Assembly (NCBI GenBank): GCA_965214705.1
Contig: CBDCCI010000002.1
Coordinates: forward strand, 896,001-960,000
Direction: 5' to 3'
From: Alphaproteobacteria bacterium
GTDB taxonomy: Bacteria; Pseudomonadota; Alphaproteobacteria; UBA828
Length of the DNA: 64,000 nucleotides
Positions 9,101-31,245 of this stretch are shown piece after piece. Made by a program: the position numbers and the translations under genes. Positions within the stretch are counted from its first letter, which is position 1, and each line of letters starts with the position of its first letter. Under the pieces are notes generated by a model. That model ran no database searches. It was not told where the DNA came from and saw only the letters and a program-made list of their open reading frames with translations.

Positions 9101-10638
9101 CGGTGGGCGACCGCGTGGCCGGCTTTGCGTTCGGCACCTTCGGGCCGGAGGTGGTGACGCGGGAGGAACTGGTCGCGCTTGCGCCGCCGGACGTGTCGGC
9201 GACGGCGCTCGCCACGATCCCCTCGGTGTTTGTGACATGCGTGCTGTCATATGAGCTTGCCGGGCTGAAGGCCGGGGACCGCGTGTTGATTCACGCCGGC
9301 GCGGGCGGAGTCGGCCTTGCGGCCATCCAGCTCGCCCAGGCGGCAGGGGCGGAAGTGTTCGCCACGGCGAGCACGCGCAAGCGAGCCTATCTCCGCTCGC
9401 TCGGCGTCGAGCATGTGTTTGACAGCCGCTTGACCGCGTTCGGTGAGGAAATCCTCGCGGCCACAGGCGGCGCTGGGGTCGACGTGGTGCTGAACAGCTT
9501 GACTGGCGAGGGCTTTATCGAGGCGAGCCTCGCCTGCCTCGCCGAGCGCGGCCGCTTCGTGGAACTCGCCAGGCGGGATATCCTGAGCGAGGACGAGATG
9601 GCGGCACTGCGGCCGGATGTCGCCTATTCGATCCTCGATCTCTACACCCTGAAACAGCAGGATCCCGCGCGTCCCGGTGCGGCCCTGAAAGAGGTGCTGG
9701 CACGCATCACTACGGGCGAGCTTGCGCCGCTCAGGCACACCAGATGGCCGCTAGCCGAGACGAGCGCCGCGATGGGCTACATGCGCGCGGCGCGACATAT
9801 CGGCAAGATCGTGCTGACGACGTCTCCCCTCGGGGCGGGCCGGCTGCGGCAGGACCGGACCTACCTGGTGACCGGCGGCCTCGGGGGCATCGGCTGTGCG
9901 CTTGCCGAGTGGCTGGCCGAGCGCGGCGCGGGCACGGTCGTGCTGAACGGCCGACGGGCACCGGACGCGGCTGCCGAAGAGGCGATCGAGGCGCTGCGCG
10001 CCCGCGGGTTCAGCGTGGAGGTCGAGCTTGCGGACGTGACGGATCCGGCCGCGCTGGATGCCATGCTCGCGCGGATGGACGGGGCCCTGCCGCCGCTCGC
10101 CGGGGTGATCCACAGCGTCGGCGTGCTGGCCGACGCCGCGCTCGGAAACCAGAGCTGGGAGAGCTTCGAGACCGTGCTGTGGCCGAAGATGCTCGGCGCA
10201 TGGCACCTCCACCGCGCAACCGCCGATCGCGACCTCGACCTCTTCGTTATCTTCTCGAGCGTGGCCGGCATCCTGGGCAATCCGGGCCAGGCCAATCACG
10301 CGGCGGCCAACGCGTTCCTCGATCAGCTCGCCGCCCACCGGCGCGCGCTGGGTCTTCCGGGCCAGGCCATCGCCTGGGGTGCGTGGTCGGGGCTCGGCGA
10401 GGCGGAGGAGCAGCGCGAGCGGATCGCACAGCGGCGGGAGGCATCGGGAACGGGCTGGTTCACGCCGGAGCAGGGCTTCAAGGCGCTCGATCGTCTGCTG
10501 CGGCAGGACGCCGCTGCCGCTGCCGTGCTGACGGCGGACTGGGCAGCGTTCGGCGAGGCCCTAGAGAGCCGCCCACCCCTGTTCGAGGACCTGCTCTCTG
10601 ACGCGTCCGCGGACGACGAAGCCGCGGCCTCGTCGGAA
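3193..10638 (+). pseudogene. supA: SupA-type iterative PKS, fragment 1 (KS-AT-DH-cMT-ER-KR), interrupted by IS1634
   Basis: KS DTACSSSL/EAHGTGT/NIGHLE; AT GHSLG; DH HRVFGRLIAP; MT VLEVGAGIGS; ER IHAGAGGVG; KR TGGLGGIG. Host sequence ends at the GGAA duplication, 10635-10638. Confidence 0.9.
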
Positions 10639-12798: not shown

Positions 12799-12802
12799 GG
12801 AA

Positions 12803-13025
12803 GACCTGCTTGCACAGCTTGCCGCGACGCCCGCGGCGGGGCGCGAGGAACTCTTGGTGTCCTTCCTGCAACAGGAGGTGCAGGCGGTGCTGCGGCTGCC
12901 GTCGGCGCCGGCGCCGACGGTCGGCTTCTTCGACCTCGGCATGGATTCGCTGATGGCGGTCGAGCTGCGGAACCGCCTGAACCGGGCGTTCTCCGGCGCT
13001 TACGCGGCGCCTAACACGCTGGTGT
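12803..13025 (+). pseudogene. supA: SupA PKS fragment 2 (linker and ACP up to ...APNTLV)
   Basis: DLLAQL...GFFDLGMDSLMAVELRNRL with the phosphopantetheine serine. In frame with fragment 1 once the IS and one GGAA copy are removed. Confidence 0.92.
13015..13025 (+). repeat. attL core, 11-bp direct repeat CACGCTGGTGT
   Basis: Identical to 26930-26940, and PKS similarity stops exactly here. Confidence 0.9.
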
Positions 13026-13375
13026 GCACTAGCCTACACGATTTTTCAGTGCTCAGGGGCTGACGCAGGGTTGCAGTTCCCTCCTTTATTCGGGTTATGC
13101 TACAGTAGGTTACAGGAGAGGTCAAGGGGAAATAGAGCGGGGGTGGAGGACACATTGGCAGATCATGTGTCTTCCAGAAGTTGCATTCAGGGAAGTCGGG
13201 GCGTGGAATTTGCCGTGGAGAACTGGTATGGTTTCTGTGCTGAGACTGGATAATTCAGTCAGGACACACGAATGGCATGCAATTGCAGTTGCGAGGAATA
13301 TCATAGGAGTTTCGTGATCTGTCCTGCATTGCGGAGGAGCCGCGTGTCGCGGTTACAGAAGGTCCCTACGGGCGG

Positions 13376-13747
13376 ATGGCCACGATGAGGGAGGATACTA
13401 GCGGACGGCGCCAGCGCGCGGTCATGGCCACCGATGCGGAGTGGGAGCGCATCGGCCGGGCTGCGGCGGCTTGCGGTATGGACCTGTCTCGCTTCGTCAT
13501 CCATCGCGCTCTCGATCGCGATCCGCTGCCGCCGGAAGTCCTGCGCCGGGCGGTCCGCGAGATGCTGGTGATGTCCAGGCTGGAGGAGAGGCGGCTACGC
13601 GGGGCGGGCGCCGGCGAGGCCTGGGAGGACGCCTGCGACGCGGTGGACGAATGGATGGAGCGCGAGAGCATGCTCGACCGGCTCACCGATCCAGGTGCTG
13701 CGAACCGCTGGAAGGCGGCGGGGCGGGTTGAGGAGGACGGGTCGTGA
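13376..13747 (+). CDS. Ribbon-helix-helix (MobC/TrwA-like) protein 1
   Basis: RQRAVMATDAEWERIGRAAAACGMDLSRFVIHRAL fits an RHH pattern. Overlaps the next gene (GTGA). Confidence 0.7.
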   Translation: MATMREDTSGRRQRAVMATDAEWERIGRAAAACGMDLSRFVIHRALDRDPLPPEVLRRAVREMLVMSRLEERRLRGAGAGEAWEDACDAVDEWMERESMLDRLTDPGAANRWKAAGRVEEDGS

Positions 13748-14055
13748 CGGAGGAGGCGGCACGGCCGCTCAGGCGTCAGCGAAGCCTGCACTGCAAGCCG
13801 GCTGAACAGGCGATGATCCGGGAGCGCGCGGCGGCGGCGGAGAAGACCGTGTCGCGCTATATTCTGGATCTCGCGCTCGCCGACGATCCGGACCGCCATC
13901 CGCTGGTGCTGACTGAAGCGGAACAGGTGGAGCAGCGGGACGGGGTGCGGGAGTTGCAGGCATTCGTGCGGGCTCTCCGGCGCGAGCTTCCGGGGGGCAG
14001 CGGGCTGAGCCTTCTGAGCGCGATCTCCGTCCTCGCGAGGGAGCGTGCGCTGTGA
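13744..14055 (+). CDS. Ribbon-helix-helix protein 2
   Basis: RQRSLHCKPAEQAMIRERAAAAEKTVSRYILDLAL. Translationally coupled on both sides. Confidence 0.7.
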   Translation: MTEEAARPLRRQRSLHCKPAEQAMIRERAAAAEKTVSRYILDLALADDPDRHPLVLTEAEQVEQRDGVRELQAFVRALRRELPGGSGLSLLSAISVLARERAL

Positions 14056-14588
14056 GACGGACGCGGCGTCGGCGGAAGGCGCGCAGGCCGAGCAGGCACA
14101 TCTCGATTTCGGCGACGGACGCGGAGTGGGAGACCGTTCGCAACAAGGCCGACCAGCGCGGGCTGTCGATCGCGCGCTACCTGCTGGAGCTGGTGGAGCG
14201 GGACGGCTCGGAAGAGGACACTGGTCTCCGGCACGAGTGGCCCGCGTTGGCGCTGGCAAAGGACGAGCAGCGGGAGCAGCTGGAGGCGCTGCGGGAGGTT
14301 CGCGCGCTGATGCTGGAGGGGGAGGATGCGGGTCCGCTTGTGCGCGACATGCAGGAGAGGATCGCGGTGATGTTCGCCGCCTGGGCGTCCGCGATGGCCG
14401 GGGCGGGCCGCTCGGAAGAGCTGCGCATGGCGCTCGCCTCGGTGCTGGGCGAGGAGCGGGCACGCATCGCTGCGGCGTCGGTCGTGACCTCGGTCACGGT
14501 TTCGACCGAGCCGCCGGCAGCGAAGAAGGAGGTCGCGCCTGAGTCCCGCGAGGGAAAGGCGGACGCCGGCCAGGACCGGCTCTTGTGA
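14052..14588 (+). CDS. Ribbon-helix-helix protein 3
   Basis: RHISISATDAEWETVRNKADQRGLSIARYLLELV. Shares ATDAEWE with protein 1. Confidence 0.7.
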   Translation: MRRTRRRRKARRPSRHISISATDAEWETVRNKADQRGLSIARYLLELVERDGSEEDTGLRHEWPALALAKDEQREQLEALREVRALMLEGEDAGPLVRDMQERIAVMFAAWASAMAGAGRSEELRMALASVLGEERARIAAASVVTSVTVSTEPPAAKKEVAPESREGKADAGQDRLL

Positions 14589-14767
14589 GGCGGGCACCAT
14601 GTGCGCCACGGTCCCTATCGAGGTGCAGAGAATCGTCGGTACAAGGGGAGAGACAACGTGATTGCGGGATGCGGCGGCAGAAGCGAAAGGTCGCGCTTCA
14701 GGCCCACAACGGGAAGACGGACTTGCGCCTATACCGTTTGCTGTGAGGCGGCCTCCATGTGCGCCAC
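14584..14767. repeat. 26-bp direct repeat pair bracketing a candidate oriT
   Basis: TGTGAGGCGG(GCA/CCT)CCATGTGCGCCAC at 14584-14609 and 14742-14767, matching at 24/26 positions. Lies in the gap between the RHH operon and the relaxase operon. Confidence 0.6.
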
Positions 14768-14815
14768 CGGCATGAACGAGGTGCACGAGATCGACCACAC
14801 GAGGGAACAATTGTC

Positions 14816-15483
14816 GTGACTGCGGAGCGCGACGGCAAGAGCGCGTGGACCGGCCAGCCGGACTTGCTGGCGAGCCTGCCGCCGGAGGGCCCGCCCGCTT
14901 CGCGGCCGGATCCCGGTATCGATCCTGCCGTGGTCGAGGAACTGCTCACCGAAGTCCGGGTCCTGCGGGAGCAGGTGGCCGGACTGAAGGAAGCGGTATC
15001 CGCCGACCGGCCTGCGCCAGCGCCTGAGGCTGCACCTGAGGTGCTGACGCGGGAGGCGCTGGAAGCCTGGGGCGACAATCTCGTGACCCGTGTTGCCGAG
15101 GCTGCGCGGTCGGCAGACGCGCCGGCGGCCGCGCCGGGGACGACGCGGCGGCGGCGACCGTCGCAAACCATGCCGGCAGGATCGAGGAAGCGGCGGCGAA
15201 GGCGGCAGCGGCGGCGGAACGCATCGATCGGGGTATGGCAACCACTGCGGACCGGGTCGCGGCCGGGGTCGAGGAGGCCGCGGCCAGGATCGAAAAGGGC
15301 CTCGCAGCGACGCGCTCCCAGGTCATCGACCATTCCGGTTCTATCCGTGGGCTTCTCTATGACGTCCTCACGCAAACGGCCGGACCGAAGTTCGGCTTGA
15401 AGACGGTTCTTGTGGGCTTGATCGTCTTCGTTCTGGGCATGCTGCTCGAGAGCCACATACATCTGCTCTACCGATGGCAGTGA
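14816..15483 (+). pseudogene. Ala-rich coiled-coil protein with C-terminal TM anchor, apparently frameshifted near 15120
   Basis: The N-part (VEELLTEVRVLREQVAGLKEAV) is in one frame. The C-part (GRIEEAAAKAAAAAERI...TVLVGLIVFVLGMLL) is in another frame ending at 15483. Confidence 0.55.
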
Positions 15484-15558
15484 GCCCGGTGAGCCTGCGG
15501 CGTCCCGCCTGTCCGCCACTGCCGCGCACCGGCGCGGCCGTAATCGGGGTCTGAGCCG

Positions 15559-18500
15559 ATGGTCGCCACGGTCGTCGAGCTTCGTTCGTCCGCCATGGCG
15601 GTGACCTACTACGAGCGCGACGGCTACTACGCAAAGAACGATCCCGAGCACCGCCAGGCGAGCTTCTGGTACGGGGACGCGGCGAAGGCGCTCGGGCTCA
15701 AGGCCCATGTGCGTCCCTCGCGCTTCGAATCAGTGCTGTCGGGATACGTGCCGGGCATGGACCTGCGTCTCGGCCGGATGCGCGAGGGGGAGCACGATCA
15801 CCGGCCCGGCTGGGACATCACCCTGTCCGCGCCGAAGTCGGTATCGCTGGAGGCGCTGGTGATGGGCGACCGCCGGGTGATCCGGGCTCACGACGAGGCG
15901 GTGCGCGCGACACTCCAGTTCGTAGAGACGGACCTTCTGCAGACCCGGGGCTGGGACCCCGCGACCCGGCGCCGTCCCCGGGTGAAGGCGGAGGGCATGG
16001 TGGTGGCGGGGTTCCGCCATCTCGCGAGCCGCGACCAGGACCCCCAGCTGCACACCCACTGCGTGCTGGCCAACATGACGCGCAATGGGTCCGGGGAATG
16101 GCGGAGCGTGGAGCCGACGAAGATCCGCCGCAGCGAGAAGCTGATCGGAGCATTTTACCGGAACGAGCTTGTGCTACGTCTCCAGGCGCTCGGCATGGCC
16201 GTCTCGCCGACCCTCGTGGGACGGGTGCCGGGGTTCGAGCTTGCGGGCTACGACCGCGCCTTCCTGGACGCGTTCTCGGGCAGGCGCCGCGAGATTCTCG
16301 CGTACCTGGAGCGCCAGGACCTGTCCTACTCGGCGAAGCACACGCAGATGGCGGCGCTGCACACACGCCGGCGCAAGGAGGACAAGGGCCTCGCGGACCT
16401 GGTGCCGGAATGGCGCGAACGGGCGCGGGCACTGGGTCTGGTCCGGGAGAAGACGGCCCTCGCGCCGTCCCGGCCGCTCGACCCGGTGACCGGCGAGCGG
16501 GTGACAGTGCCGCGTGCGCCCCCACCCGACCTGCCGGCCAACGAGATCCGCAGCCTGAAGCGCGCGCCGGCGCTGCCGGCGCTGCCGAGGCAGCCCCGCG
16601 ACGGCGTTGCCGCGTCGGCGGGGGTGAATCCCACGCCCCCTCGCTCACCGGCACCGGCGGAGCTGTCGCAGGAGCCCGAGCGGGGCGTCCTGGAGGCGGT
16701 GGCGCGTGCGGTGGCGCACGTTGCGGAGAGGCGCACCGCGATCCCGGAGGCCGAGATCCGGGCGGTGGCGCTGGGCCATGCACCGGGGCGCTACACCCTG
16801 GCCGAGGTCGACGGGGCGATTTCACGGCTGGTGTCCGGGGGCGAGCTGATCGAGGCGGAACGCCGGGGCATGGACCGGGCCTTCGTCACCGACCGCGCGG
16901 TGAAGGCCGAACGCCAGGTGCTGGCGTCGATGCGGTCGGGGCGCGGCAAGCGGCCGGCGCTGGCCGGCGCGGATGCCGTGGAGGCGCGGCTCGGGGCGTC
17001 GCGTCTCACCCGGGGCCAGAGGGAGGCGGTCCGCACGGTGCTGCTGTCGAGCGATCTCACGGTCGGCGTGCAGGGCCATGCGGGCAGCGGCAAGACCACC
17101 ATGCTGAGGGAGGTGAAGGCGCTTCTCGGAGGCAGGACGATACAGGGCCTCGCGCCCTCGGCCGCCGCCGCCCGGGTTCTCGCCAGAGAGGCGGACATCC
17201 CGTCCAGGACGCTGCAGCACTTCCTGACCCGCTTCAACGATCTCTCCGACCCGGCGCGGCTGGCGCGGGGCCGTGAGGAGTACGGGGGCGCGGTGCTGGC
17301 GGTAGACGAGGCGTCGATGATCGACACCGTGCGCATGGAGGCGCTGCTGCGCATCGCGCGCGATCTGAATGTCGCGCGGGTGGCGCTGGTGGGCGACACC
17401 GCGCAGCTGAAGGGGGTGGATGCGGGCCAGCCCTTCCGTCTGCTGCAGAAGGCGGGCATGGCGACGGCGACCATGGACGAGGTGCTGCGCCAGCGCGACC
17501 CGGAGCTGCGCGCGACGGTGGGTCTTGCCCGGGAGGGGGAGCCGGGCGCGGCGATCGCGGCGCTGGGCAACCGGGTGCGCGAAGCACGGCGCGAGGAGCT
17601 CGGCATCGAGGCGGCGCGGCGCTGGCTCGCGCTGGCGCCGGAGGACCGCGCGGACACCCTGATCCTCGCGCCGACGCACGCGATCCGCCGGCAGGCAAAC
17701 GAGGCGGTGCGCGAGGGGCTCGCGGAGGAAGGCGTGCTGAGGAGCCGCACGCTCGCCGTCGACCGCCTGGTTGACCGGCGGCTCACCCGTGCGCTGGCTT
17801 CCGATATCCGCAGCTACGAGCCCGGAGACACCATAGTGTTCCACCGCGACGTCTTCGGCTGCCGCGCGAACGACGTCTGCACCGTCATGGGCTACGACGG
17901 CGGCAGGGTCGTATTGGCCCACGCCGAGGGCGAGCGCCGGTTCCGGCCCTCGGGCAATGCGGCGCGCTATCTGGGCCTCTACGACACCGAGCGGATCGAG
18001 CTGCGCGCCGGCGACCTGATCCGCTGGACGCGCAACCGCAAGGCCCCGCCCGGCCGCGGCAGGCATCCCCGGGGGCCGGACCTGGTCAACGGCGGCGAGG
18101 CGGAGATCGTGGAGATCGGCTACAGGCGGGTGCGCTTCCGCGAGGGCGGCCGGGAGTTCGGTCTTGCGCTTACCGACCCGCAGCTGCGCCATCTGGATCA
18201 TGCCTACTGTTCCACCGTGCATTCTGCGCAGGGCCGGACGGCGCGGGCGGCGATCGCGGTGCTGGACGCGGGCGCCGGGGCCGACCGCGAGCTGTTCCAT
18301 GTCGAGCTCAGCCGGGTCTCGGAAGAGTTCCTGCTGCTGACCGACGACCGCGACGCGCTGATCGAGAGCATGGCATACGACCGGAGCGAGGACGGGGCGC
18401 TGGAGGCGCTGGGGATCGACCTCTCCGAGCCCCCCGTGGTGGACCCCGAAGAGTTCGCGGTGCTGGCGAGCGACTGGCAGGCGCTCCTGCGGGAGGGCGA

Positions 18501-20337
18501 GGCGGCGAACACCGTTCCGTTCCTCCTCCCGGGCTACCGGGACACGATGGCCCAGGCTGCTGCGCTCGCGCAGATCGAGGACCTGCCGGAGGACATGCGC
18601 CGCCTCACCGGCACCATGCTGGCGAAACACGAGCAGCATCTCGCGCACGACCGCGAGGTGCAGGGCCTCGTCGGGCGCGTGCGCGACCACTGGCGGCGCT
18701 GGCCGGAGCTCGGTTGGGCTGCCTCCTCGCAAGGAGTGCCGGTGGAGGAGCTTCCCGCACACGCTGCTTGGCGCGAGGAAGGGGCGGCGCTCCTGGAGGC
18801 CGCAGCCCGGCTCGGGGCGGACGGCGAGGCAGCACCCCATCTGCATGCCATGCCTGGCGGGCGCGCCGGCCTGGAAGACGCCGTCGATATGCTCGAACGC
18901 ACGCGGCTCCTCGACGATGCCGGACGGTTCGAACGGGCGTGGCACGCGCTCCGCGAACGGGCTGCGGAGAGCGTCATCCCGGAGATTTACGCGCCGGGCT
19001 ACCGGCAGGTGGCGCAGCTTGGCGAGAATCTCGCGGCCGCCGAGAGGCTCGACGCGCAGGCCCAGCGCGCGGTGGCGGAATGGCGGGAGGTCGATGCGGC
19101 GCAGACGGCGCTGGCGGACGAGGTGCGCACCCTGCCCGGCCGCATCGCGGCGTGGCAGGCGGTGGTCCTGCCACAGGACGAGCCCGGCGGGCTCGAGCCG
19201 GACCATCCCGCGCGCCTCGCTTGGCGCGAGGAAGGCGCCGCACTGGAGGCCATGGCCGGGGACATGCTGCGCCCGGAAGACGTCCATGCGCCCTACCTGG
19301 ACGCCGAGCCGGATGCGCGCGAGGCCGTCCGGCAGGCGGCCGAAGAAGTCGCCGACTCGCTCCGGCACGACCGCTACCGGGCATTCGGGTGGCTGACGAA
19401 GGAGGTAAACCGGCAGGCGCGAGAAACCGGAACCGAGGCGTTCCATGTGCCGCGCTACGGCGAGATGATCGCACAGGCCGAGGCGCTCTCCGCGCAGGCG
19501 GCGCTGCCGGCGCGCACGCAGGAGGTTGTCGCCTCGTGGCTCGACTACCATGCCCGGTGCGAACCGGTCTGCCGGCAGATCCGGGAATGGCCCGCACGGC
19601 TTGACGCGCTGACGGCGGACTGCCCCGAACGCCCCGCGAGGCTCGTGTCCCTGACCGAGTGGCGCCAGCAGGCGGAGCCCCTGCTCGCCGATGCCCGTGC
19701 GATGCTGGCAAACGACGCCCCCCACGCGCCCCATCTGGCAGCCATGCCGGACGAGCGCAAGGCGCTGGCCGAGGGAACGAACCGCCTCGACCGCGAACTG
19801 ATTGAGGTCGAGGCACGGGAGACGGACGTGCTGTCTTCGGTCGTGCAGCAGTGGGCGGAGAAGACGGGCGGTATCGGCTTCGATAGCCGCGACTATGCCG
19901 CGCTGATGGAGCGCGCACGCTCCCTCGATGCCAGGCCGCATCTGCCGGAGGGTCTGCGCGAGAGGGTCGACGTCCTTCTCTTCAGGGACGAACGCTGGGC
20001 GATCGACCGGGATCGGGTCGAAGCATTCCTCGAGCGGGCTGCGGAGGCCGAGAGTGCGCGGCAAGTCATGACGCAGCAGCGCGTCACGACCAACTCGTTC
20101 GAGGAGCGTCGACAGGCCCGGCGAGACTGCCGGCAGAAGGAGAAGGAGGTTCTCGACGAGGCGGCGGCAATCAGGAAGGACATGCCGCAACACGAGCTCG
20201 CCGCCCATCTGGGCGCCGCCGGCGCAGGCCCGGACGCGGTCCAAAAGCGCGAAGAGGAGATCCGCAACAGGATCGCCCGGGAACAGGAAAAGCAGGCCGC
20301 CCTGCGAATGAGCCGGGACCGGGGAATGTCGATGTAA
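15559..20337 (+). CDS. MOBF (TrwC/TraI-like) relaxase-helicase with long repetitive C-terminal extension
   Basis: YYERDGYY catalytic tyrosines, DITLSAPKSVS, HUH motif DPQLHTH, Walker A GHAGSGKTT, VDEASM, HAYCSTVHSAQGRT. Confidence 0.93.
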   Translation: MVATVVELRSSAMAVTYYERDGYYAKNDPEHRQASFWYGDAAKALGLKAHVRPSRFESVLSGYVPGMDLRLGRMREGEHDHRPGWDITLSAPKSVSLEALVMGDRRVIRAHDEAVRATLQFVETDLLQTRGWDPATRRRPRVKAEGMVVAGFRHLASRDQDPQLHTHCVLANMTRNGSGEWRSVEPTKIRRSEKLIGAFYRNELVLRLQALGMAVSPTLVGRVPGFELAGYDRAFLDAFSGRRREILAYLERQDLSYSAKHTQMAALHTRRRKEDKGLADLVPEWRERARALGLVREKTALAPSRPLDPVTGERVTVPRAPPPDLPANEIRSLKRAPALPALPRQPRDGVAASAGVNPTPPRSPAPAELSQEPERGVLEAVARAVAHVAERRTAIPEAEIRAVALGHAPGRYTLAEVDGAISRLVSGGELIEAERRGMDRAFVTDRAVKAERQVLASMRSGRGKRPALAGADAVEARLGASRLTRGQREAVRTVLLSSDLTVGVQGHAGSGKTTMLREVKALLGGRTIQGLAPSAAAARVLAREADIPSRTLQHFLTRFNDLSDPARLARGREEYGGAVLAVDEASMIDTVRMEALLRIARDLNVARVALVGDTAQLKGVDAGQPFRLLQKAGMATATMDEVLRQRDPELRATVGLAREGEPGAAIAALGNRVREARREELGIEAARRWLALAPEDRADTLILAPTHAIRRQANEAVREGLAEEGVLRSRTLAVDRLVDRRLTRALASDIRSYEPGDTIVFHRDVFGCRANDVCTVMGYDGGRVVLAHAEGERRFRPSGNAARYLGLYDTERIELRAGDLIRWTRNRKAPPGRGRHPRGPDLVNGGEAEIVEIGYRRVRFREGGREFGLALTDPQLRHLDHAYCSTVHSAQGRTARAAIAVLDAGAGADRELFHVELSRVSEEFLLLTDDRDALIESMAYDRSEDGALEALGIDLSEPPVVDPEEFAVLASDWQALLREGEAANTVPFLLPGYRDTMAQAAALAQIEDLPEDMRRLTGTMLAKHEQHLAHDREVQGLVGRVRDHWRRWPELGWAASSQGVPVEELPAHAAWREEGAALLEAAARLGADGEAAPHLHAMPGGRAGLEDAVDMLERTRLLDDAGRFERAWHALRERAAESVIPEIYAPGYRQVAQLGENLAAAERLDAQAQRAVAEWREVDAAQTALADEVRTLPGRIAAWQAVVLPQDEPGGLEPDHPARLAWREEGAALEAMAGDMLRPEDVHAPYLDAEPDAREAVRQAAEEVADSLRHDRYRAFGWLTKEVNRQARETGTEAFHVPRYGEMIAQAEALSAQAALPARTQEVVASWLDYHARCEPVCRQIREWPARLDALTADCPERPARLVSLTEWRQQAEPLLADARAMLANDAPHAPHLAAMPDERKALAEGTNRLDRELIEVEARETDVLSSVVQQWAEKTGGIGFDSRDYAALMERARSLDARPHLPEGLRERVDVLLFRDERWAIDRDRVEAFLERAAEAESARQVMTQQRVTTNSFEERRQARRDCRQKEKEVLDEAAAIRKDMPQHELAAHLGAAGAGPDAVQKREEEIRNRIAREQEKQAALRMSRDRGMSM

Positions 20338-20775
20338 GCGTGGAACGCAGCAGGCGCAGACCGCCGCGTCCGTGCGGACCGCAGGCCATGGTGTCGAGGC
20401 GGGGCGCCGTTCCGATTCGTGGCGGCCTTCTGACTCGCAGGGGAACAACTTGTGGCATATGTCCTCATGTACAGGGACGTGTGAGCGTGCTGATTATCGG
20501 TGGTTCGTTCCCGAGTGTTTCACGTCTCCGCATAGCCACTCTGCCATCTGGCCTCGCCCATTCAGTCGACGGTCTCCTTGGCCAGACCTTCGCCCTCGCC
20601 TATCATCACTCTCATTTACGACTCGTGGGCAGCCCGCTTCGCCGGGTCGCCCGCCAAATACAGCGGCCCTAGACCCGGCACGGGGTAGCCCTTGGTGCTT
20701 GGCAAATTGGCGGGACCTCACGTGACCCACGTGTCGTAAGCACGGCCCGGCACCAGTGCCGGGTCGAAACAACGA

Positions 20776-21237
20776 ATGACGCGAGGTACGGCTATGAGGA
20801 CTCTCGTGTACGCCGCTGCGGTCGCGTCTCTGTTCGCGGGGAGCGCTGCCGCCGGGCCGTGCGACGAGGCCGAGCGCGGTACCTACCTGAGCAACGTCTG
20901 CTGGCTAGTCAATACTCACGCGAACAATAGAGTATTCGTTTACGAGAGAAGCATAATCGAGGCCAACGAAGAAAATTGCACGATCACGCTCGTGAGAAAC
21001 CAGGACGACGACAATCCGCTGAAGATCTACTTCAATCGAGCAAATCTGCGGGACATTGAGACGCGCATCGTTGATGGTAAGAACTGTCTCTATCTTTATG
21101 GAGAAGAGCTTGTAGAGGAAACGCGCGGATACGGCGAATACGTCGCATTCTGCGGTCGTAAATCAATGGAGCGCGTTGAAGCCGCCGCGGTCAACCTCTA
21201 CGCAAAGTACTGCACGGGAAGGGTGTCGGAGTTCTGA
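20776..21237 (+). CDS. Secreted Cys-containing hypothetical protein
   Basis: Signal peptide MRTLVYAAAVASLFAGSAAAG (probable start a few codons in), six Cys, lower GC. Confidence 0.65.
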   Translation: MTRGTAMRTLVYAAAVASLFAGSAAAGPCDEAERGTYLSNVCWLVNTHANNRVFVYERSIIEANEENCTITLVRNQDDDNPLKIYFNRANLRDIETRIVDGKNCLYLYGEELVEETRGYGEYVAFCGRKSMERVEAAAVNLYAKYCTGRVSEF

Positions 21238-21355
21238 ATGGACCCAGACATGATGATGGAGATGAAGCTCGTGCGAGAGCGAGACGAGGTAGCGGTTGCG
21301 AGCATTTCACCATCGTCTATGTTCTCTTCTACCTTTTCACAGAAAGGACGCAACA

Positions 21356-22153
21356 ATGACACAACCGGAGTTAGGACCAGCATGCCGCGCTGTATCCCAA
21401 CTGTGGGATGACGCTGTGCAGATGTTTCTGGATAGTGGTGAACGGCCGCCGCATCTTGATTCGTGGTTTCGGTCTTACCGGGGCGGCGGTAAAGGCGCTG
21501 TTGAACGAAACGCCATGCCTGAACCATTTCTGGGTTCGCTGGCGACCAAGCCGAGGGGTGTTATCCTCGCTCTAAATCCTGGAAAGGCCGATCTTTGCTT
21601 CCAGGGACGCACCGGCATCTTCGCTGACGAGATTCGGACCAACGGCGGCTCTTACACGAGGTGGGCAGCATCGTGGCCTTATTTCCGGGAGGCGTGGATC
21701 GAACGAAAGCGGCGGAACCAACATCATGAGAGGCGCCTCCAGTTCATTCGCAACTGGCTTGACGACCAAGAGTTGTCGCATAGCGCGATGGTCTCCTTCG
21801 AACTGTACCCTTGGCACAGCGATCGTTTCTCCGGCAGACTGGATTGCGAGGCCGCAGGCAAGTTCTTTGCGGGTCATATACGGGACGCCCTTGTGGAACT
21901 CGACGCACCCGTATTCGCCTTCGGCGCGCGATGGTTTCCGATCCTCAAACACGCGCGGTCCGGTCTTGAGGTTGACGAACGGCTGGATGGAGAACGGCCA
22001 TATTGCAGCTGTGTGGCAAGCCGCAGGGTTATGCTCCTACGAGGAGACGGCGGGCTAAATGTGATCGCGGTCAAGCAAATGGGGTATGCGGGTCCACCGA
22101 GCCGCGACGAGACCCTCCGGTTGCGCGATGTTGTGACCGACATCTGCTCCTGA
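21356..22153 (+). CDS. Brig1-like anti-phage DNA glycosylase (UDG superfamily), 265 aa
   Basis: LWD..., MPEPFLG, VILALNPG, GIFADEIR, RRLQFIRNW and FELYPWHS match my recollection of the Brig1 family. RBS AAAGGA precedes ATG 21356. Confidence 0.75.
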   Translation: MTQPELGPACRAVSQLWDDAVQMFLDSGERPPHLDSWFRSYRGGGKGAVERNAMPEPFLGSLATKPRGVILALNPGKADLCFQGRTGIFADEIRTNGGSYTRWAASWPYFREAWIERKRRNQHHERRLQFIRNWLDDQELSHSAMVSFELYPWHSDRFSGRLDCEAAGKFFAGHIRDALVELDAPVFAFGARWFPILKHARSGLEVDERLDGERPYCSCVASRRVMLLRGDGGLNVIAVKQMGYAGPPSRDETLRLRDVVTDICS

Positions 22154-22486
22154 TCCGGCCCGCCGCAGCTCTCATGCTGCTAACAACGAGGACCTCAAGA
22201 ATCCCCTGGCGGCACCCCCGGATCGCGAAATAGACTATAGCGCTCGTAGGCCGAATAGGGGTCTGGATTGAATGCTGACTGACAGTGTAGCGCTACACCG
22301 ACAAACAAAATGTGCGCAGCCTGTGGCGTTCGGAGATCTGCCGCTGGCGATGGTGCTTCACGTTCGAGAGACCGCTCTGGGTCGGAAGATCGCGAAGATC
22401 AGCTTGACTTCAAGCGCCCCGTTACGAAGACTTGCGAAGCTCAGTACTCGACTTCAGCCGCCCTTCCGGAATCAGAGAGGCCCCTC

Positions 22487-23341
22487 TTGGCAAAAGGTAA
22501 CAACGGAAACTACCTACAGCATTGCGTTGAAGTCGAATCGGCGGCGCTTCTTGCGCAGATAAGTCCCAACCGCATGCTCCATGTCGCGCTGACGCATGGC
22601 ATGGCACCGTTCGAGCAGATCGGCGAACCCAACGGCAATGCCTACTGTCTCCTTTACGGTACGTTGTGCGAGGCTGCTGGCGAATCCAAATGCAACGAAC
22701 GGAAGATTGTGAAGGCGTATAGGGTGTCATGAAAATGGCACGGATACCAGCCTGACATTGCGAATCTGTTCGATGACTTGAAGACGGAAAAGCACTACCC
22801 CAACTCCGCGGAGCTATTACGCACGATCATTGGAACAAACCGGTTATCCGGTAGTATAACGGACCGAGATAAGGCTAAGTGCAAGGAACTTGCAGCGGCT
22901 TGGGCCGATTCAGGAATTGTTGTCGCCCGATCGTTATGGCGCAAGCAACTGAATCCGGGCGGCGCGCTGAGCTGCCCGGACCATCTGGATGCGCCTTGGC
23001 TGTTTTCCATGGACCCGATGACCTATTCGGAAAACGGCGACAACGATGATGCGTATCTGCATCGCTCAGATTTAGACCTGCTGGCACCTGCGCTTGAACA
23101 ATACGTCTGCAGCGGCCAGCCCGGCATTGCATCTCTGTTCGTGTACGGTGTAGGTAGCCACGCGAACCGACAACGCCAATTCTGGGCATTCATGGACGAA
23201 CTGGCTAAGCGGCTGGGTTTGCAGACTCTTTCCTATAGGACTGCCCATCGCGGTGGAAATCTCAATTTGGCTGGCTTGTTGTGTTCAGATCACCAACTGG
23301 CTGTAGGCTTTGATCTTCCTGACCTTAAGGAAGGCCGATGA
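22487..23341 (+). pseudogene. RlmJ-like adenine methyltransferase with in-frame TGA at 22730-22732
   Basis: KGNNGNYLQH, LTHGMAPF, HYPNS and FSMDPMTY parallel RlmJ AGNHADVLKH, DTHAGAG, YPGS and IDPPY in the same order. Both ORF pieces are in one frame, 284 codons in total. Confidence 0.5.
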
Positions 23342-23392
23342 GGGCAGAATAATCGTGTCGGCACGCACGATGTTTTTCCAAGTATCGCGAAC

Positions 23393-24358
23393 ATGAGGAT
23401 GCAGTTGGCTATATATACGAACCTGAGCGCTGCGTGCAGGTGGAATCCATGGAGGGCGTTTTCCGAGCAGTTGAGGCGAGCAGCCCTTCTTCTTACCTTG
23501 CTGTTCCTCGTGCTCGAAGGCGCAGCGGCGGAAGAGGGTGCTGGAAGCGAACCTCCTTACGGCAGCGAGGAACTCGCACGACAGGCCGCAGATTGGGATG
23601 TGTTCAACAGCGGGATCCAGCAAGAGTTGCGTCTGCTAGTCGATAAAGGTCTTATTGACAAAGAAGCTTTCAACCCGGCCCCATCTACGTCGTCGAAATG
23701 GTGGGACGAACAGGGGACGAAAGGCAAAGCGTTACGAGCTCGCATCGTCCGTAAGCTTAGGGCTAATCCCTTAATGGAAGGCGCGTCGAACTTAAGCCTG
23801 TGGTTTATGGTGGGGCTCCTGGAACAAGGCGCCCGCGTTAGAGCAACGGTTAAAGACCTAAAGGTCAAGTCCCCAAATAACGCTCCCTTTGCGAGCGGTT
23901 TTGGTCCTGGAAGCGAGCGTGAGCGGTTTGGTCTGTGGACAGAGTGTAGGCCGCTATGGCCCGAACTGTTTTTGAATTCGAAAGATGACAATTTCGAGGT
24001 TTCGATCCGCGCCGCGGTGGAGAGCAGGCTACGTGGGGCGAGGCTCTATGGCGGCTTGACGAGGAGCAGTACGGGCGAGGACTTCGTCCCCAGCGGCGAA
24101 CCTCTGCAAGTTGTAGTGAACCTCGGCAGCGGCTTGTTTAGCGTTAGCGTGGGACTGCAAAAGCGCCTGTTTGATCCGATTACAGGGTTGCGGAGTTTTG
24201 CTTACGCGGATTATGGCGGCGGAGGCTATAGCAGTTTCGGTGCCGGTCCGCCGGAATTCGTGCATTCCGTACTCTCCGACCACTTGGATAGGTTTATCGC
24301 CGACTACCTGCGCGTCAACGCGGACGCGTGCGGCGGTCCGTCGGAGGTGGCGAAGTGA
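23393..24358 (+). CDS. Hypothetical exported protein (element cargo)
   Basis: Long open frame in lower-GC DNA with a hydrophobic segment ALLLTLLFLVLEGAAA. Start uncertain. Confidence 0.55.
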   Translation: MRMQLAIYTNLSAACRWNPWRAFSEQLRRAALLLTLLFLVLEGAAAEEGAGSEPPYGSEELARQAADWDVFNSGIQQELRLLVDKGLIDKEAFNPAPSTSSKWWDEQGTKGKALRARIVRKLRANPLMEGASNLSLWFMVGLLEQGARVRATVKDLKVKSPNNAPFASGFGPGSERERFGLWTECRPLWPELFLNSKDDNFEVSIRAAVESRLRGARLYGGLTRSSTGEDFVPSGEPLQVVVNLGSGLFSVSVGLQKRLFDPITGLRSFAYADYGGGGYSSFGAGPPEFVHSVLSDHLDRFIADYLRVNADACGGPSEVAK

Positions 24359-24543
24359 TTGTTTGGACGGAATGCTACAGACGGTAGCATAAAGGATGAT
24401 TACAGCACGAGATGTCACTCGTTTGTTCCCGCCACGGTCTTTCGCGCCACCGCATGCCAAGCGCCTTATCCATACTTTGCGAGAGCAGGCAGCTTAATGA
24501 CTCTCAGATCGTGGTGCGGGTCGGAGAACGTCGTTCCCGCAAC

Positions 24544-25689
24544 CTACAACCCCATGATGTTTGCGATGGCCCGGCCCACCCTCTCCGCGGCGTTCTCGAT
24601 ATCCCGGTCCCCGAGGTGAGCGTAGCGCAGCGTCATGCGTACGTTGGAGTGGCCGAGCAGCCGGGAGACTACCGGCACCGGCACGCCGTTCATCACCGCG
24701 TGGCTCGCCACGGTATGACGCAGGTCATGAAGGCGCACGTCCTCGATGCCGGCTTCACGCCGCACCCGGTACCAGAGAGCGAGATAGCGGCTGCGCGGCC
24801 GCGACGGGTCGCGCGGCGAGGGAAAGACGAAGGGGCTTGTCCCGCGCGGCTGACGCCCGAGAACCGCGCGGGCCTTGGTGTTGAGAGGAACCGTCCTCCG
24901 GCCCGTCTTGCTTTCCTGGAGGATCAGGCGGTGGTCGTCGACTTCCGACCAGCGGAGCTGCACGATCTCGCCCCTGCGGCACCCGGTCAGAAGCAGCAGG
25001 CGGACGATGTCGGCCTGCTGCCGCTGGTCGCTTCCCGTTTGTCGGTCAAGCGCGCGGTGCAGACGATCGACTTCCTTGCGCGACAGGAAGCGGGTGAGCA
25101 CCGGGCGCCGGTTTCTCTGTATGTCGCGGGCCGGGTTGGTGTCGATGTGGCCGCGGGCGGCGGCGAAGTTCAGGATCTGCCGCAGGAGGGCGAGACCGTG
25201 ATTGGCGTTGCCGGGGGCGGTGCGGCTGAAGTCGTCGAACCAGCGTCTGATCTCGGCCGGGGAGATGCGGTCGAGCCGCTTCGAGCCGAAGGCCGGCAGG
25301 ATGCGGACGTCGAGCAGGCACCGGAAGGCACTCCTGGACGAAGGCTTGTATCTGTCGAAGTTGGCCTCCTTCCACTCGCCGGCGACAAAGTCGCGCAACA
25401 GGGGAACGGCACGCTTGGGAGCGGCCCTGTCCTCCGGTTCCGGCGCGGCCTGGCGGGCGAGGCAAGCGCGGCGCGCCTCGGCGACGCTCATGGTCTCCAC
25501 CGGGCCGAGCGAGATGCGTCTCGATCCGTCTGCGCTTTGCCGCAAGAGGACCCAGCTCTTTCCTCCGGTAGCTCGGACCCGGACCCCGAGCCCGCGCACC
25601 GTGGTATCCCAGACGGTATATTCCCGCTCGCCGGGCTGCAGCCGAGACACGGCGGCGTCGGTGATGCGCACGCGTTTCGGTCCTGCCAT
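24544..25689 (-). CDS. Tyrosine integrase 2 (arm-binding N-terminal domain)
   Basis: ITDAAV...GLGVRV arm domain, TGCRRGE, KTG, HDLRH, LLGH...TLRY. Full catalytic set present. Confidence 0.95.
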   Translation of the reverse strand: MAGPKRVRITDAAVSRLQPGEREYTVWDTTVRGLGVRVRATGGKSWVLLRQSADGSRRISLGPVETMSVAEARRACLARQAAPEPEDRAAPKRAVPLLRDFVAGEWKEANFDRYKPSSRSAFRCLLDVRILPAFGSKRLDRISPAEIRRWFDDFSRTAPGNANHGLALLRQILNFAAARGHIDTNPARDIQRNRRPVLTRFLSRKEVDRLHRALDRQTGSDQRQQADIVRLLLLTGCRRGEIVQLRWSEVDDHRLILQESKTGRRTVPLNTKARAVLGRQPRGTSPFVFPSPRDPSRPRSRYLALWYRVRREAGIEDVRLHDLRHTVASHAVMNGVPVPVVSRLLGHSNVRMTLRYAHLGDRDIENAAERVGRAIANIMGL

Positions 25690-25692
25690 GGC

Positions 25693-26811
25693 TTACTCTC
25701 CTAACGCCTTTCCGACGATTTCTGCGGCATCGGCGACCATGCTGTCGGCGAGGTGCGTGTACTTGAGAGTGGTCTCGGGGCTCGCATGACCGAGCAGGCG
25801 TCCGATGGCGAGGACGGTGACGCCCTGCCTGAGTGCGATGCTGGCATGCGTGTGTCGAAGATCGTGAAGGCGCACGTCAGTCAATCCGGCCTCGGCACGG
25901 AGCCTGTGCCAGAAGTGGTCGAGCGCGCCCGGCTCGGGCGGTTGGGCTCGATGCGGGGCCGCGAACACCCAGGGACCCTTCCGCTCCAGGTCGTCGAGGA
26001 CGTCACGCGCGGGCTGCGACAGCCAGACGGTTCTGGGGCCGGACTTGCTATCGCGCAGGAAGAGGTGTCCCTCGCGGTAGTCGGACCATCGGAGGCCCAG
26101 CATCTCCCCTTTCCGGCATCCGGTCAGCAGCAGGAGGCGGATTGTTGCGACATGCCGCGGGAAGCGCTCCGCATGCGCGGACAGCTGCGCCGACAGGCGG
26201 CGAATCTCGTCGTCGGAGAGAAAACGCTCACGCCCCTTGCGGCGATAGCGCCGGATGCCCCGGCAGGGGTTGGAGCCCTCGGGCCTGAGCCCCGCCACCT
26301 CGGCCTCGCGCATGATGACCGACAGGACCGGCATCGACCTGTCGGCCGCGACCGGGGTGGCGCGGAGCGCGGCGAACCAGTCATGCACCTCGTGGCGGTC
26401 GATCTCGGCAACCGGGCGACCGGCGAAGTGAGGCAGAATCTGGTTCTTGAGATAGCGCCGGTTGACCGCCAGCGTGCGCCGCTTCCACAGTCGTTCGTAT
26501 TGCAGGAACACGGTCTCGGCGAAATCCTCGAAGAGCGTTTCCCCGGCCGCGGAATCCCCTTCACCCCGCCTGATGGCGGCGAGCATCCCGCGGGCGCGGG
26601 CGCGCGCCTCGTCAACGCCGGTCTCTGCGGCGTCACCGACGATCTTCCAGGCGCGCTCCCCGTCGTGCTGGCAATGGATGAAGAAGCGCTTGCGGCCCGA
26701 GGGCAGCACGCGGATGCCGAAGCCTTTGAGCTTGCCGTCCCGGACATCGCGGGCTGTCTTGCGGGGCCTGAGTGCCCGCACGCGGGCGTCGGTGAGGGTC
26801 GTTCCGGCCAT
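25693..26811 (-). CDS. Tyrosine integrase 1 (arm-binding N-terminal domain)
   Basis: LTDARV...GFGIRV arm domain, TGCRKGE, KSG, HDLRH, LLGH...TLKY. Its stop lies 3 nt before the integrase 2 start. Confidence 0.95.
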   Translation of the reverse strand: MAGTTLTDARVRALRPRKTARDVRDGKLKGFGIRVLPSGRKRFFIHCQHDGERAWKIVGDAAETGVDEARARARGMLAAIRRGEGDSAAGETLFEDFAETVFLQYERLWKRRTLAVNRRYLKNQILPHFAGRPVAEIDRHEVHDWFAALRATPVAADRSMPVLSVIMREAEVAGLRPEGSNPCRGIRRYRRKGRERFLSDDEIRRLSAQLSAHAERFPRHVATIRLLLLTGCRKGEMLGLRWSDYREGHLFLRDSKSGPRTVWLSQPARDVLDDLERKGPWVFAAPHRAQPPEPGALDHFWHRLRAEAGLTDVRLHDLRHTHASIALRQGVTVLAIGRLLGHASPETTLKYTHLADSMVADAAEIVGKALGE

Positions 26812-26929
26812 GGCGTCTCTCCCGGCTGCGGTTGCAGCCGGGGAACGTCGGGGTAGCCGATCCGTCCGGATGCAACAGATGTGGAGAGAAAAAGCGACCC
26901 TGTTTCAGTCCATTAGCACCGAAGGTGCG

Positions 26930-26940
26930 CACGCTGGTGT
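26930..26940 (+). repeat. attR core, 11-bp direct repeat CACGCTGGTGT
   Basis: Identical to 13015-13025 and followed by TC GAT TAT CCG (FDYP). Confidence 0.9.
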
Positions 26941-29609
26941 TCGATTATCCGAACATTTCCGTTCTCGCTGATCATCTGGTGGGGGAGCTTGGCGACGAGA
27001 TCGCGGCCCCAGCCCCCGAGGCGACGACCGAAACGAGCCGGCAGGTGCCGGTGCGGCGCGAGGACGACGGCATTGCCATCGTAGGGATGGCCTGCCGCTT
27101 CCCCGGCGCGCCGGACATCGCCACATTTTGGCGCCAGCTCGAAGCGGGTCACGACGCGGTGACGGACGGGCGCCAAGACGGCGGGACCTGGACCGGGGTT
27201 GCCGGAGACCCGGCAGCCGACGACAGTCCCTGGAGGCAAGGCGGCTTCGTCGACGGGATCGACGGCTTCGATGCGCGCTTCTTCGGCATGACTCCCATCG
27301 GCGCACGCATGATGGACCCGCAGCAGCGGCTGCTCCTGGAAACCACCTGGCAGGCGCTCGAAGATGCGGGGATCGATCCGGACGGCCTGCGGGGCAGCTG
27401 CACCGGGGTCTACGCCGGGGTCTCCACCAGCGAGTACCGCGATCTGATGATGTTGGCTGGCAACGAGAACCTCAGCTATCTCGGTACCGCGAGCAGCACC
27501 GCAGTCGGCGGTGTGGCGTTCAAGCTGGGTCTCACGGGACCGACCAATCCGGTGATGCTCAACTGCGCGGCGTCGCTGGTCACGGTGCAGCAGGCGGTCG
27601 CGGGCCTGCGGCAGGGCGAGGTGGAGATGGCGCTGGTGGGCGGCGTGAGCGCCGTGCTCTCGCCCGGGCTGACCGTCGAGATGGCAGCGCTGGGAATGCT
27701 GTCACAGCGCGGCCGCTGCAGCACCTTCGATGCTGCGGCAGACGGATTCGTGCGGAGCGAGGGCTGCGGCATGGTCGTCCTAAAGCGGCTCGCCGAGGCT
27801 GAGGCCGACGGCGACCGCATCTGGGGGGTCATTCGCGGCGCGGCGGTCAACCAGAACGGAGCGAGCGCGGGGCCGACCGTGCCGAACGGCCCGGCGCAGG
27901 AGCGGGTGATCGAGGAAGCGCTCTCGCAGGCGGGGGTCCTGCCGTCGGACGTTGACTATCTGGAGGCGCACGGGGCGGGTTCGGCGCTAGGCGATCCTAT
28001 CGAGGTGAACGCGGCGGCGGCGGTCTATGGTCGGGAGCGGAGCCCTGACCGTCCGCTGCTCATCGGCTCGGTCAAGACCAACATCGGCCATCTGGAATCG
28101 GCGGCGGGCGTTGCCGGCCTGATCAAGGTCGTGCTGGCGATGCGGCACGGCACAATCCCGAAGAACCTGCACTTCCGGGACCCCAATCCGCACCTGGAGT
28201 GGGACCGGCTGCCGCTGCGCGTGGTGTCGGAGACGACGGACTGGCCGCGAGACCCCGACCGGCCGCCGCGGGCAGGCGTCAGCGCGTTCGGTATTTCGGG
28301 CGTGAACGCGCACGTCGTGCTGGAGGGCTACGGGCCGACGAGTGGCGCATCGGCCGGGAACCAGGGCAATGATTCCCATGCGGGCGCCCCGCAGCGCGTC
28401 GCGGTGACATTGCCGGAGCCGGCCGCGAGTCTGCCGCCGTCCGAGGAAGCCTTCTCCGCGCGCAACACGCGGTTTCTGCCGCTCTCGGCCAAGTCCGACG
28501 AGGCGCTCCAGGCACTGGCGGGGCGCTATCTCACGTGGCTTGACGAGCACGCCAGCGAACTGGCGGCAGATGGCGCTGCATCTGACACCCTGCTCTCGGA
28601 CATGGCCTGGACGGCCGCCGTCGGCCGCAGCCACTTCGGCCATCGGGCGGGCGTGGTGTTCCAGGACGCGGAATCGCTGCGACAAGGTCTCACCGCGCAC
28701 GCGCATGCGGACGCGGTGCCTGGCCCGGGGGCGGCGACGAAGGCGGCATTCGCCTACACCGCCGAGACTGGCGAGTGGGTCAGCATGGGGGGCGCACTCT
28801 ACGCGCGCGAGCCGGTGGTGCGCGCCGTGCTCAACCGCTGCGATGCGGTGCTCGGGGAGGATCGGGGGGCCTCGCTGCTCGATGCGATGTTCGGCGGTCC
28901 CGGCGTCGAGGGGGGCCTGAGCGATCCGGCGTGGGCGCGGCCCGCAACCTACGCTCTCGCGTGCGCGCTCACCGCACTATGGGCGAGCGTCGGCATCCGG
29001 CCAAGCGTGGTGGCCGGACAGGGCGCAGGCGAGATTGCGGCGGCACAGGCCGCCGGCGTGTTCAGTCTGGAGGACGGCTTGCGGCTAGCCGCGGCCGGGA
29101 GCGACACCGAGGCGGCGCTGGACGGCGTCGCATTCGCCACGCCGACGGTCGGCCTTGTGAGCGACCTCACCGGCCACGTGATGGATCCGGATCAAGCTCT
29201 GGATAGGATGTACTGGCACCGCCAGGCGGCGGGCGCTCCAATCGCAATCGACGGCTGCGCCGAGACACTGGCCGCCCTGGGCGTCGACGTCGTCATCGAG
29301 ATCGGACGGGCCTCCGTGCTGGCGCCGCTGTTGGCAGAGGCTTGGCCGAAGACAGAGGAAAACGCAGCGGCGCCAATGCTGTTGTCGAGCCAGCGGCAGT
29401 CGTCGGGCGGCGAAGAGGCGGCGGCAGGACATGCCGACGGTGCCTTCGTGGAGGCGGTCGCCCGGGCCTACGAGGCGGGGCTCGGCGTGTCCTTCGCGGG
29501 GCTCTTCGCGAGCGAGACACGGCGTCGTATCTCGCTGCCGGGCTATCCCTTCCAGCGCCGGCGCTTCTGGCTATCGAAGCCTGGGGGGCACACCACCGTG
29601 TCGGATTGA
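26941..29609 (+). pseudogene. supA: SupA PKS fragment 3 (ACP end, second KS, degenerate AT)
   Basis: FDYPNISVLADHL, then KS (IAIVGMACRFPG, LNCAASL, EAHGAGS, NIGHLE), an AT with GQGAG instead of GHSxG, and a terminal LPGYPFQRRRFW. Confidence 0.92.
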
Positions 29610-30924: not shown

Positions 30925-31245
30925 GCGCATAGTCTCCCTGTCTTTAAAGAGCTGAAAGTGAGACCCCACACGGGGCTCAGAAGTGTACAGGTCCGATTGC
31001 ATCGACACCATCGCCGAAACGGAAGGCGCCGCGCAACAACTGCGCCTTATTAGGCGTCGACTATGCCGATTCGGTCAAGTCTTGTCGCAACTCCCGGCTT
31101 TGGCAAACTACGCTGCAAATCCATGACGGGTTACTTAATGCTAATCCGTCGACACGTCAGCGTGCGAGCGGGAGGCCGATAGAGACCGCCATGCGCGACA
31201 AATAGCGGGCGGAAAATGCCCCGACGCGGATACGCACCCGCTGCG

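Follow-up and report, generated by a model that had tools for sequence, protein, structure and literature searches.

A probable integrative and mobilizable element with paired tyrosine integrases and relaxed target specificity in the carrier-protein codons of a polyketide synthase gene

The stretch of DNA analysed here (the window) comprises 64,000 nucleotides of contig CBDCCI010000002.1 (positions 896,001 to 960,000; assembly GCA_965214705.1) from a sponge-symbiont alphaproteobacterium, the genome of which (G000) amounts to 7.92 Mb on three contigs. Within the window, the gene for a 3,445-aa polyketide synthase (PKS) is interrupted in its acyl carrier protein (ACP) codons by an element of 13,915 bp. 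Two tandem tyrosine integrase genes (IntA and IntB) and a gene for a TrwC/MobF relaxase are carried by the element, and its description as a twin-integrase mobilizable element, given in a first-pass annotation of the window, was retained. The positions of the features are collected in Table 1.

The element is bounded by the 11-mer CACGCTGGTGT, of which exactly two copies were found in the window. An 11-bp repeat alone is no proof of an insertion, because the window holds 3,402 exact 11-mer pairs; it is the position of this repeat that counts. The left copy ends an open ACP N-terminal half (PP-binding match), and the right copy starts a frame that continues through the ACP C-terminal half, a KS and an AT domain to a stop at 29609; the two half-frames join because the period of 13,915 is 1 modulo 3. 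No replacement gene end comes with the element, so that the PKS is split, as had been proposed. The same gene contains a second insertion, an insertion sequence (IS) of the IS1634 family that is absent from the first-pass annotation. Removal of the element and the IS in silico gave a 3,445-aa frame without internal stop, with the domain order KS-AT-DH-MT-ER-KR-ACP-KS-AT and with 94% identity over its full length to its counterpart in congener G017. The expectation that precise excision would restore the frame was borne out in silico in this form, with the IS also taken out.

Orthologous PKS loci of congeners were uninterrupted at the ACP site in nine of nine cases; the orthologues share the same gene end, and in eight of the nine an open frame of 3,454-3,467 aa is present. 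The sequence in the three closest congeners is cctaaCACGCTGGTGTtcgattatccg, as predicted for the empty site, and contains the identical 11-mer; five other congeners have GGTGT at the ACP position. Contigs of four public sequencing runs were compared over window positions 10000-29500. Both junctions of the element were spanned by run contigs (X17, records 9 and 13; X18, records 16 and 20), and an assembly chimera was ruled out, as these contigs come from independent runs. One contig of run X1 joins position 13014 to 26930 and thus lacks exactly 13,915 bases. The boundaries of the element in the ACP region were confirmed by the position of the repeat, the congener sites and the run contigs taken together.

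The integrases belong to a large family. The genome gave 150 scored integrase matches to IntA and contains 96 full-length P4-like integrase genes, 30 of them of IntA type, and in 25 of these 30 an IntB-type gene follows directly downstream. Copies of IntA type number 31 in this genome, compared with 0-14 among 20 congeners, and are absent from five of the 20. In about 30 other copies, similarity to the integrase end of the window element breaks off at positions corresponding to 26929-26945, at or just past the core. The pattern ACCGNAGGTGCG was matched 41 times in the genome, in 36 cases within the conserved context ...TCAG...TTAGMACCGNAGGTGCG. These 36 family ends read ...TTAGCACCGNAGGTGCG, then six variable bases (N6), then GGTGT in 34 cases and CGTGT in two; beyond the core the DNA is unrelated among all of them. 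About 13 left ends were found in the genome, with the structure flank-N6-GGTGT-GCACT...GACGCAGGGTTGC. The genome contains GGTGT itself 12,550 times, and three further exact copies of CACGCTGGTGT are all unoccupied.

In metagenome-assembled genomes (MAGs) of other species, 80 loci with IntA homologues were located; the end motif was recognised in 43 of them, followed by N6-GGTGT in 29 of the 43. The MAGs are mostly Alphaproteobacteria, with the labels Defluviicoccus, Rhodospirillales, Boseongicola and Paracoccaceae; a few bins bear the labels Chloroflexota, Dehalococcoidia or Pseudomonadales. When the ends were pooled, giving 78 after removal of redundancy, GGTGT was present in 56, the first hexamer position was C or T (Y), and positions 2-5 as well as the outer flank were uninformative. 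The sequence conserved in the family is GCACC-N3-GGTGC-G-Y, N5, GGTGT-GCAC, with half-sites that are not mirror images of each other. The palindromic attP core put forward in the first-pass annotation, GTGCGCAC-GCTG-GTGTGCAC, was discarded: its CAC and GCT come from the variable hexamer and are peculiar to this copy.

These ends bear on the proposal that the element family adopted the ACP codons (NTLVFDYP) of sup-type PKS as a dedicated site among co-occurring symbionts. The label sup (sponge symbiont ubiquitous) is that of the first-pass annotation; for the host gene itself, the analysis covered the order of the domains. The in-frame, scarless geometry of the window insertion and the 11-bp identity of its two ends speak for such a site, as does the retention of the codons in the congeners described above. 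Against it, none of the 35 other family ends in the genome (0/35) and none of the 43 recognisable ends of other species (0/43) lies in ACP codons; the flanks of the 35 are unrelated and have only N6-GGTGT in common. The genome has a single instance of the V-F-D-Y-P codon pattern, and all nine congener orthologues are empty although 15 of 20 congeners have IntA-type genes; G017 carries a copy of IntA with 90% identity about 93 kb from its intact PKS gene on the same contig. The closest homologues of IntA (89-90%, loci L019 and L020) carry TTAGGC-GGTGT near a hydantoinase gene, in non-PKS DNA, and one relative (Boseongicola) adjoins a tRNA-Gly gene. Close homologues at unrelated or tRNA sites are what the first-pass annotation had itself associated with a chance hit on the PKS, and specialisation on the ACP sequence is regarded as highly improbable. 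A target derived from tRNA genes was also rejected, since among 127 loosely defined ends only one is close to a tRNA gene, at the 5′ end of that gene.

Several family insertions sit within other mobile DNA. In one of them (G000, C1:360460-382339), a 15.6-kb twin-integrase element with the identical 11-bp ends CCAGACGGTGT interrupts the IntB-type gene of a larger element of 21.9 kb. When the frames produced by excision in silico were examined for ten element pairs, mostly long spurious GC-rich frames were obtained, and this nested insertion was the one clear case. Three ends in G000 (C1:655649, C1:3355697 and C3:2067573) have the hexamer CTTGTC and the flank in common, the latter being the end of the same family of IS that is found in the PKS gene; they would be accounted for either by repeated insertion at a single position of the IS or by a composite that was copied. 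The Boseongicola relative (L075, positions about 5796-5871) is a twin-integrase element with 68% IntA identity that adjoins the 5′ end of the tRNA-Gly gene. Copies from Rhodobacterales have four to five bases before GGTGT, compared with six elsewhere.

For four other elements, empty sites (attB) were taken from congeners or paralogous repeats and compared with the left (attL) and right (attR) junctions. The hexamers of attB, attL and attR are CCGCGA, CCGCGA and CCGCGC in pair 5; TCGTCC, TCGTCA and CCGTCC in pair 3; TCGAGC, TCGCGA and CCGAGC in pair 10; and GCGCCA (followed by GGTGT), GCGCCA and CCGCCA in pair 6. In the case of pair 7, only paralogous copies in the genome were matched by the left flank, and an anchor search of these yielded no empty site. 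The four comparisons indicate that the first base of attR is the element's own (Y) and that the exchange falls within N5; as judged from these alignments, the exchanged segment would be N5, to which one or both of the leading G bases of GGTGT may be added. In pairs 3, 5 and 10, one or two mismatched bases in N5 were tolerated. The non-target bases were located at attR once and at attL twice, and their placement at either end is the outcome expected if a heteroduplex overlap were replicated. Duplication of a target was considered and rejected in favour of a mismatch-tolerant exchange, as exact 11-bp direct repeats were found only in the window element and one other.

The bases ascribed to the element match those of the target at 4, 4 and 3 of five positions in pairs 3, 5 and 10, respectively 5 positions for which chance would give about 1.4 matches in this GC-rich genome. 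Over the four pairs and the window element, 21 of 25 N5 positions are the same in both ends, so that similarity in N5 evidently helps. These values bear on a simpler scheme, in which the target is chosen by GGTGT alone and the crossover bases have no part in the choice, as reported for Tn916, and similarity in N5 arises afterwards from mismatch repair or gene conversion. The heterologous junctions of pairs 3, 5 and 10, in which one or two of five positions differ, and the uninformative positions 2-5 across the family are in line with that scheme; the excess of matches over chance runs against it, and repair cannot explain the similarity in N5, because mismatches remained in place. Choice by GGTGT alone is accordingly held to be unlikely. 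In the window element N5 is the same at both ends, so its excision would be scarless.

[quoted passage not shown] The family would behave like a transposon with relaxed target specificity. Its attP is predicted to read ...GCACCGNAGGTGCG-Y/N5/GGTGTGCAC..., and its target would be GGTGT preceded by five bases that are similar, although not necessarily equal, to the five currently carried by the element. Strand exchange is proposed to bracket N5, perhaps with the first G or two of GGTGT, and to tolerate mismatches; after replication, one junction would hold the bases of the target and the other the old bases of the element as coupling sequences. IntA and IntB may act as a hetero-tetramer, with one half-site for each, a suggestion made because the two half-sites are not symmetric. 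The window copy would have been inserted at ACGCT-GGTGT in the ACP codons and so have knocked out the PKS, the site having been chosen through a short motif that is frequent throughout the genome and not through the biology of the PKS.

Several observations weigh against this interpretation. The agreement in N5 means that the family is not freely promiscuous, and for the window element effective recognition may extend to about 10 bp, in which case CACGCTGGTGT would literally be its att site. The comparisons of filled and empty sites number five only (four other elements and the window element), and five further left/right pairings could be mispaired. In pair 3 the relative has GGTGC in place of GGTGT, so that the right limit of the exchange is not fixed. 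Of the loci from other genomes, 37 of 80 were unmatched by the strict end pattern, and the family-wide statement rests on the remaining 43. Two further points belong here: the PKS shows no other defect once both inserts are removed, and run X1 contains the empty joint (depth 5.24) beside the filled right junction (depth 4.84).

The last two points would favour a reversible on/off switch, in which regulated excision of the window copy restores the PKS and re-integration silences it, and so would the intact integrase genes and the scarless geometry that follows from the full agreement of the two ends in N5. On the other hand, a sister strain may be the source of the empty contig of X1, since congeners are 94-95% identical, and no empty joint was present in X17 or X18. 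The reference allele also contains the IS, so that excision of the element alone would not restore the gene. No circle (attP) joint was found among the contigs of the four runs, a result that is uninformative because contigs drop rare forms. No excisionase (Xis) or regulator was recognised among the open reading frames (ORFs) of the element; the many insertions, some of them in other mobile DNA, fit selfish spread better than domestication, and the surplus of IntA-type copies over the 20 congeners resembles the behaviour of selfish DNA. A switch is considered quite unlikely, and the accidental insertion of an IME is preferred.

Apart from the integrases, the element contains a putative transfer region and a cargo region. 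Three tandem, overlapping small ORFs have one N-terminal motif in common, and the third alone gave weak matches to NikA/TraJ, below the cut-off; the three probably encode relaxosome accessory proteins, for which a ribbon-helix-helix fold is suggested. Their arrangement upstream of the relaxase gene resembles a triplicated relaxosome accessory gene. The following ORF of 213 aa lies in GC-rich DNA and may not be a real gene. In the cargo, the ORF at 21296-22153 resembles the anti-phage DNA glycosylase Brig1 (NCBIfam NF047634, 229.6 bits; cut-off 230). The other cargo ORFs had no family match, and PADLOC, Pfam and PHROG searches were all empty for the cargo; judging by the Brig1-like ORF, the element probably carries defence cargo.

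IntA and IntB are 38% identical and their genes lie three bases apart. Residues R233, K256, H316, R319, H342 and Y351 of IntA are invariant among six paralogues, and in the alignment of the two proteins the motifs of IntB stand opposite R, K, H-x-x-R, H and Y of IntA, which we take to be the usual catalytic residues of tyrosine recombinases.

Profile searches matched neither a coupling protein nor VirB4 to any ORF of the element. Across the genome, 36 TrwC-domain matches and 11 coupling-protein matches (PF02534, PF10412) were obtained, the latter outside the element, and the VirB4 family PF03135 had 0 matches in the whole genome; G000 presents many relaxase-bearing elements and no recognised mating pore. 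Transfer would be initiated by the accessory proteins and the MobF relaxase-helicase, which would nick a candidate origin of transfer (oriT) near the left end, and a coupling protein and mating pore would have to come from another element.

Table 1. Features of the interrupted PKS gene and of the element in window coordinates.
Feature	Position	Strand	Evidence
PKS first part, KS-AT-DH-MT-ER-KR, to the IS insertion point	3193-10634	+	Pfam; frame resumes at 12799 without the IS
IS1634-family insertion sequence, between KR and ACP	10639-12798	-	family match, ends
PKS ACP N-terminal half, last codons N-T-L-V	12799-13025	+	PP-binding at residues 58-101 of ORF 12692-13063
attL core, C + ACGCT (5-bp crossover segment) + GGTGT	13015-13025	+	repeat, family comparison
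Left end, GCACTAG...GACGCAGGGTTGC, non-coding, candidate oriT region	13026-13375	+	conserved among about 13 of the genome's elements
Three tandem overlapping small ORFs	13376-13747, 13744-14055, 14052-14588	+	translations
ORF, 213 aa, without family match	14759-15400	+	ORF call
MobF/TrwC relaxase fused to SF1B helicase, 1,592 aa	15559-20337	+	Pfam TrwC (250 bits), AAA_30; NCBIfam MobF (254.9 bits)
Low-GC cargo, four or five ORFs	20776-24358	+	54-58% GC compared with about 70%
IntB, tyrosine integrase, 381 aa	24544-25689	-	Arm-DNA-bind_3, Phage_int_M, Phage_integrase
IntA, tyrosine integrase, 372 aa, first of the pair, reading inward from the right end	25693-26811	-	Arm-DNA-bind_3, Phage_int_M, Phage_integrase
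Right end of the element, terminal motif TTAGCACCGAAGGTGCG (26913-26929) common across the family	26812-26929	+	family ends
attR core, C + ACGCT + GGTGT	26930-26940	+	repeat
PKS last part, ACP C-terminal half (TLVFDYP...), KS, AT, stop	26931-29609	+	Pfam, orthologues

The IS of the PKS gene encodes a transposase of 651 aa (10743-12698, minus strand) and is delimited by perfect terminal inverted repeats of 17 nt and by a GGAA target duplication (10635-10638 and 12799-12802); at least 40 copies of its end are present in the genome. The joint without the IS (10634 to 12799) was seen in four of four runs; in two of them its depth was about half that of the unique cargo (23 compared with 46 in X17, and 18.7 compared with about 40 in X18). 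Since the IS-less contigs of X17 and X18 extend into the left end of the element, the element arrived first and the IS is still polymorphic; the IS would have been inserted later, in some members of the population. The DNA immediately downstream of the PKS gene encodes, on the opposite strand (30694-32139, minus), a 4′-phosphopantetheinyl transferase and an ACP of 105 aa that stands alone.

The likeness of the family to Tn916 and CTnDOT lies in the mode of working and does not imply membership or sequence kinship. Tolerance of heterology in the crossover segment, with bases carried over from the previous site, is given as the hallmark of these two elements (PMC5812530), and IntDOT is reported to need identity only beside the first cleavage (PMC2817482). 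The IntDOT scheme would accommodate the combination of an invariant GG(TGT) and an adjoining variable N5. Features in common are a tyrosine recombinase with an arm-binding domain, many targets with a short motif beside a crossover segment of 5-6 bp, and, as comparison of pairs 3, 5 and 10 suggests, a heterology-tolerant crossover with coupling bases carried on. The present family differs in its two tandem P4-type integrases without a recognised Xis, where Tn916 and CTnDOT have one Int and Xis, and in its alphaproteobacterial hosts, GC-rich target motif and MobF relaxase without conjugation machinery of its own.

[quoted passage not shown] The window element resembles these groups in two tyrosine recombinases that appear catalytically complete from their motifs and lie together at one end, in a 6-base spacer between end motifs that travels as a footprint, and in the use of several sites per genome. 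It differs from SEs, with the order intA, tfp, intB, srap, in having no gene between IntA and IntB and no conserved gene after IntB; a relaxase sets it apart from both SEs and GInts. An empty allele exists and may have arisen by excision; SEs are reported to leave no empty site when attL and attR recombine. Tn554, as described there, has a large TnpB and a TnpC, whereas both integrases here have an ordinary length (372 and 381 aa) and the operon lacks a third gene. RITs, again by that description, consist of three tandem genes, in contrast to the two found here, where one IntB-type gene follows in 25 of 30 cases. The twin-integrase family lacks the defining gene sets of Tn554, SEs, RITs and GInts, as neither tfp, srap or tnpC nor a third recombinase gene is found beside the two integrase genes.

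An IME is defined by an integration module of its own and a relaxase, without a mating pore (PMC5357655, PMC5704250). The window element has what this definition names: its own integrases, att sites and a known empty site, and its own relaxase, with probable accessory proteins, but without a complete type IV secretion system. Typical IMEs have one integrase and a fixed site, unlike the paired integrases and varied sites found here. P4-type islands in tRNA genes have the Arm-DNA-bind_3, Phage_int_M/SAM-like and catalytic domains in common with the present integrases; they differ in their position at the 3′ end of tRNA or tmRNA genes, an end that is rebuilt on integration and for which the single 5′ tRNA case among 127 ends is no counterpart, and in the lack of paired integrases. 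With skin, the nifD element and comK prophages, the window element has in common the in-frame interruption of a coding gene and the possibility of precise restoration. These are single-copy and tied to one gene and one developmental programme, whereas the present family is multicopy and has unrelated targets.

Overlapping tandem integrase pairs were also observed on the megaplasmid of Shewanella oneidensis MR-1 (L150) and on a Polymorphobacter plasmid (L151), thus in cultured Gamma- and Alphaproteobacteria, with 39-40% identity to IntA and with ends that lack the GGTGCG-N6-GGTGT motif; these pairs indicate that the integrase gene pair as such is widespread. No description of a tandem P4-type integrase IME with this end structure was found in the literature searched, which excluded subscription journals and supplements. 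The twin-integrase elements might, tentatively and with the odds somewhat against it, represent an undescribed class of tyrosine-recombinase transposons that combines a hetero-tetramer, a drifting 5-bp 'memory', spread within genomes and between symbionts, defence cargo and reversible knockouts.

The attractive idea that a mobile element is devoted to the carrier-protein motif of a PKS is removed by these results. Documented in its place, by comparison, is a family with paired integrases, the end structure GGTGCG-Y-N5-GGTGT and a mismatch-tolerant crossover, and the insertion in the PKS gene is shown to be polymorphic in natural populations. Elements of this kind help to explain the presence of dozens of integrases in a 7.9 Mb sponge symbiont genome. 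Should both integrases share in the reaction, the family would offer a simple two-protein system for asymmetric tyrosine recombination, and the bases carried over would also be a natural record of the previous site of each element. If the elements do form a class of their own, they would spread within the genome (36 ends) and among sponge-associated Alphaproteobacteria, and the 5-bp segment beside GGTGT would be partly rewritten with each hop, so that the target preference of a lineage would drift.

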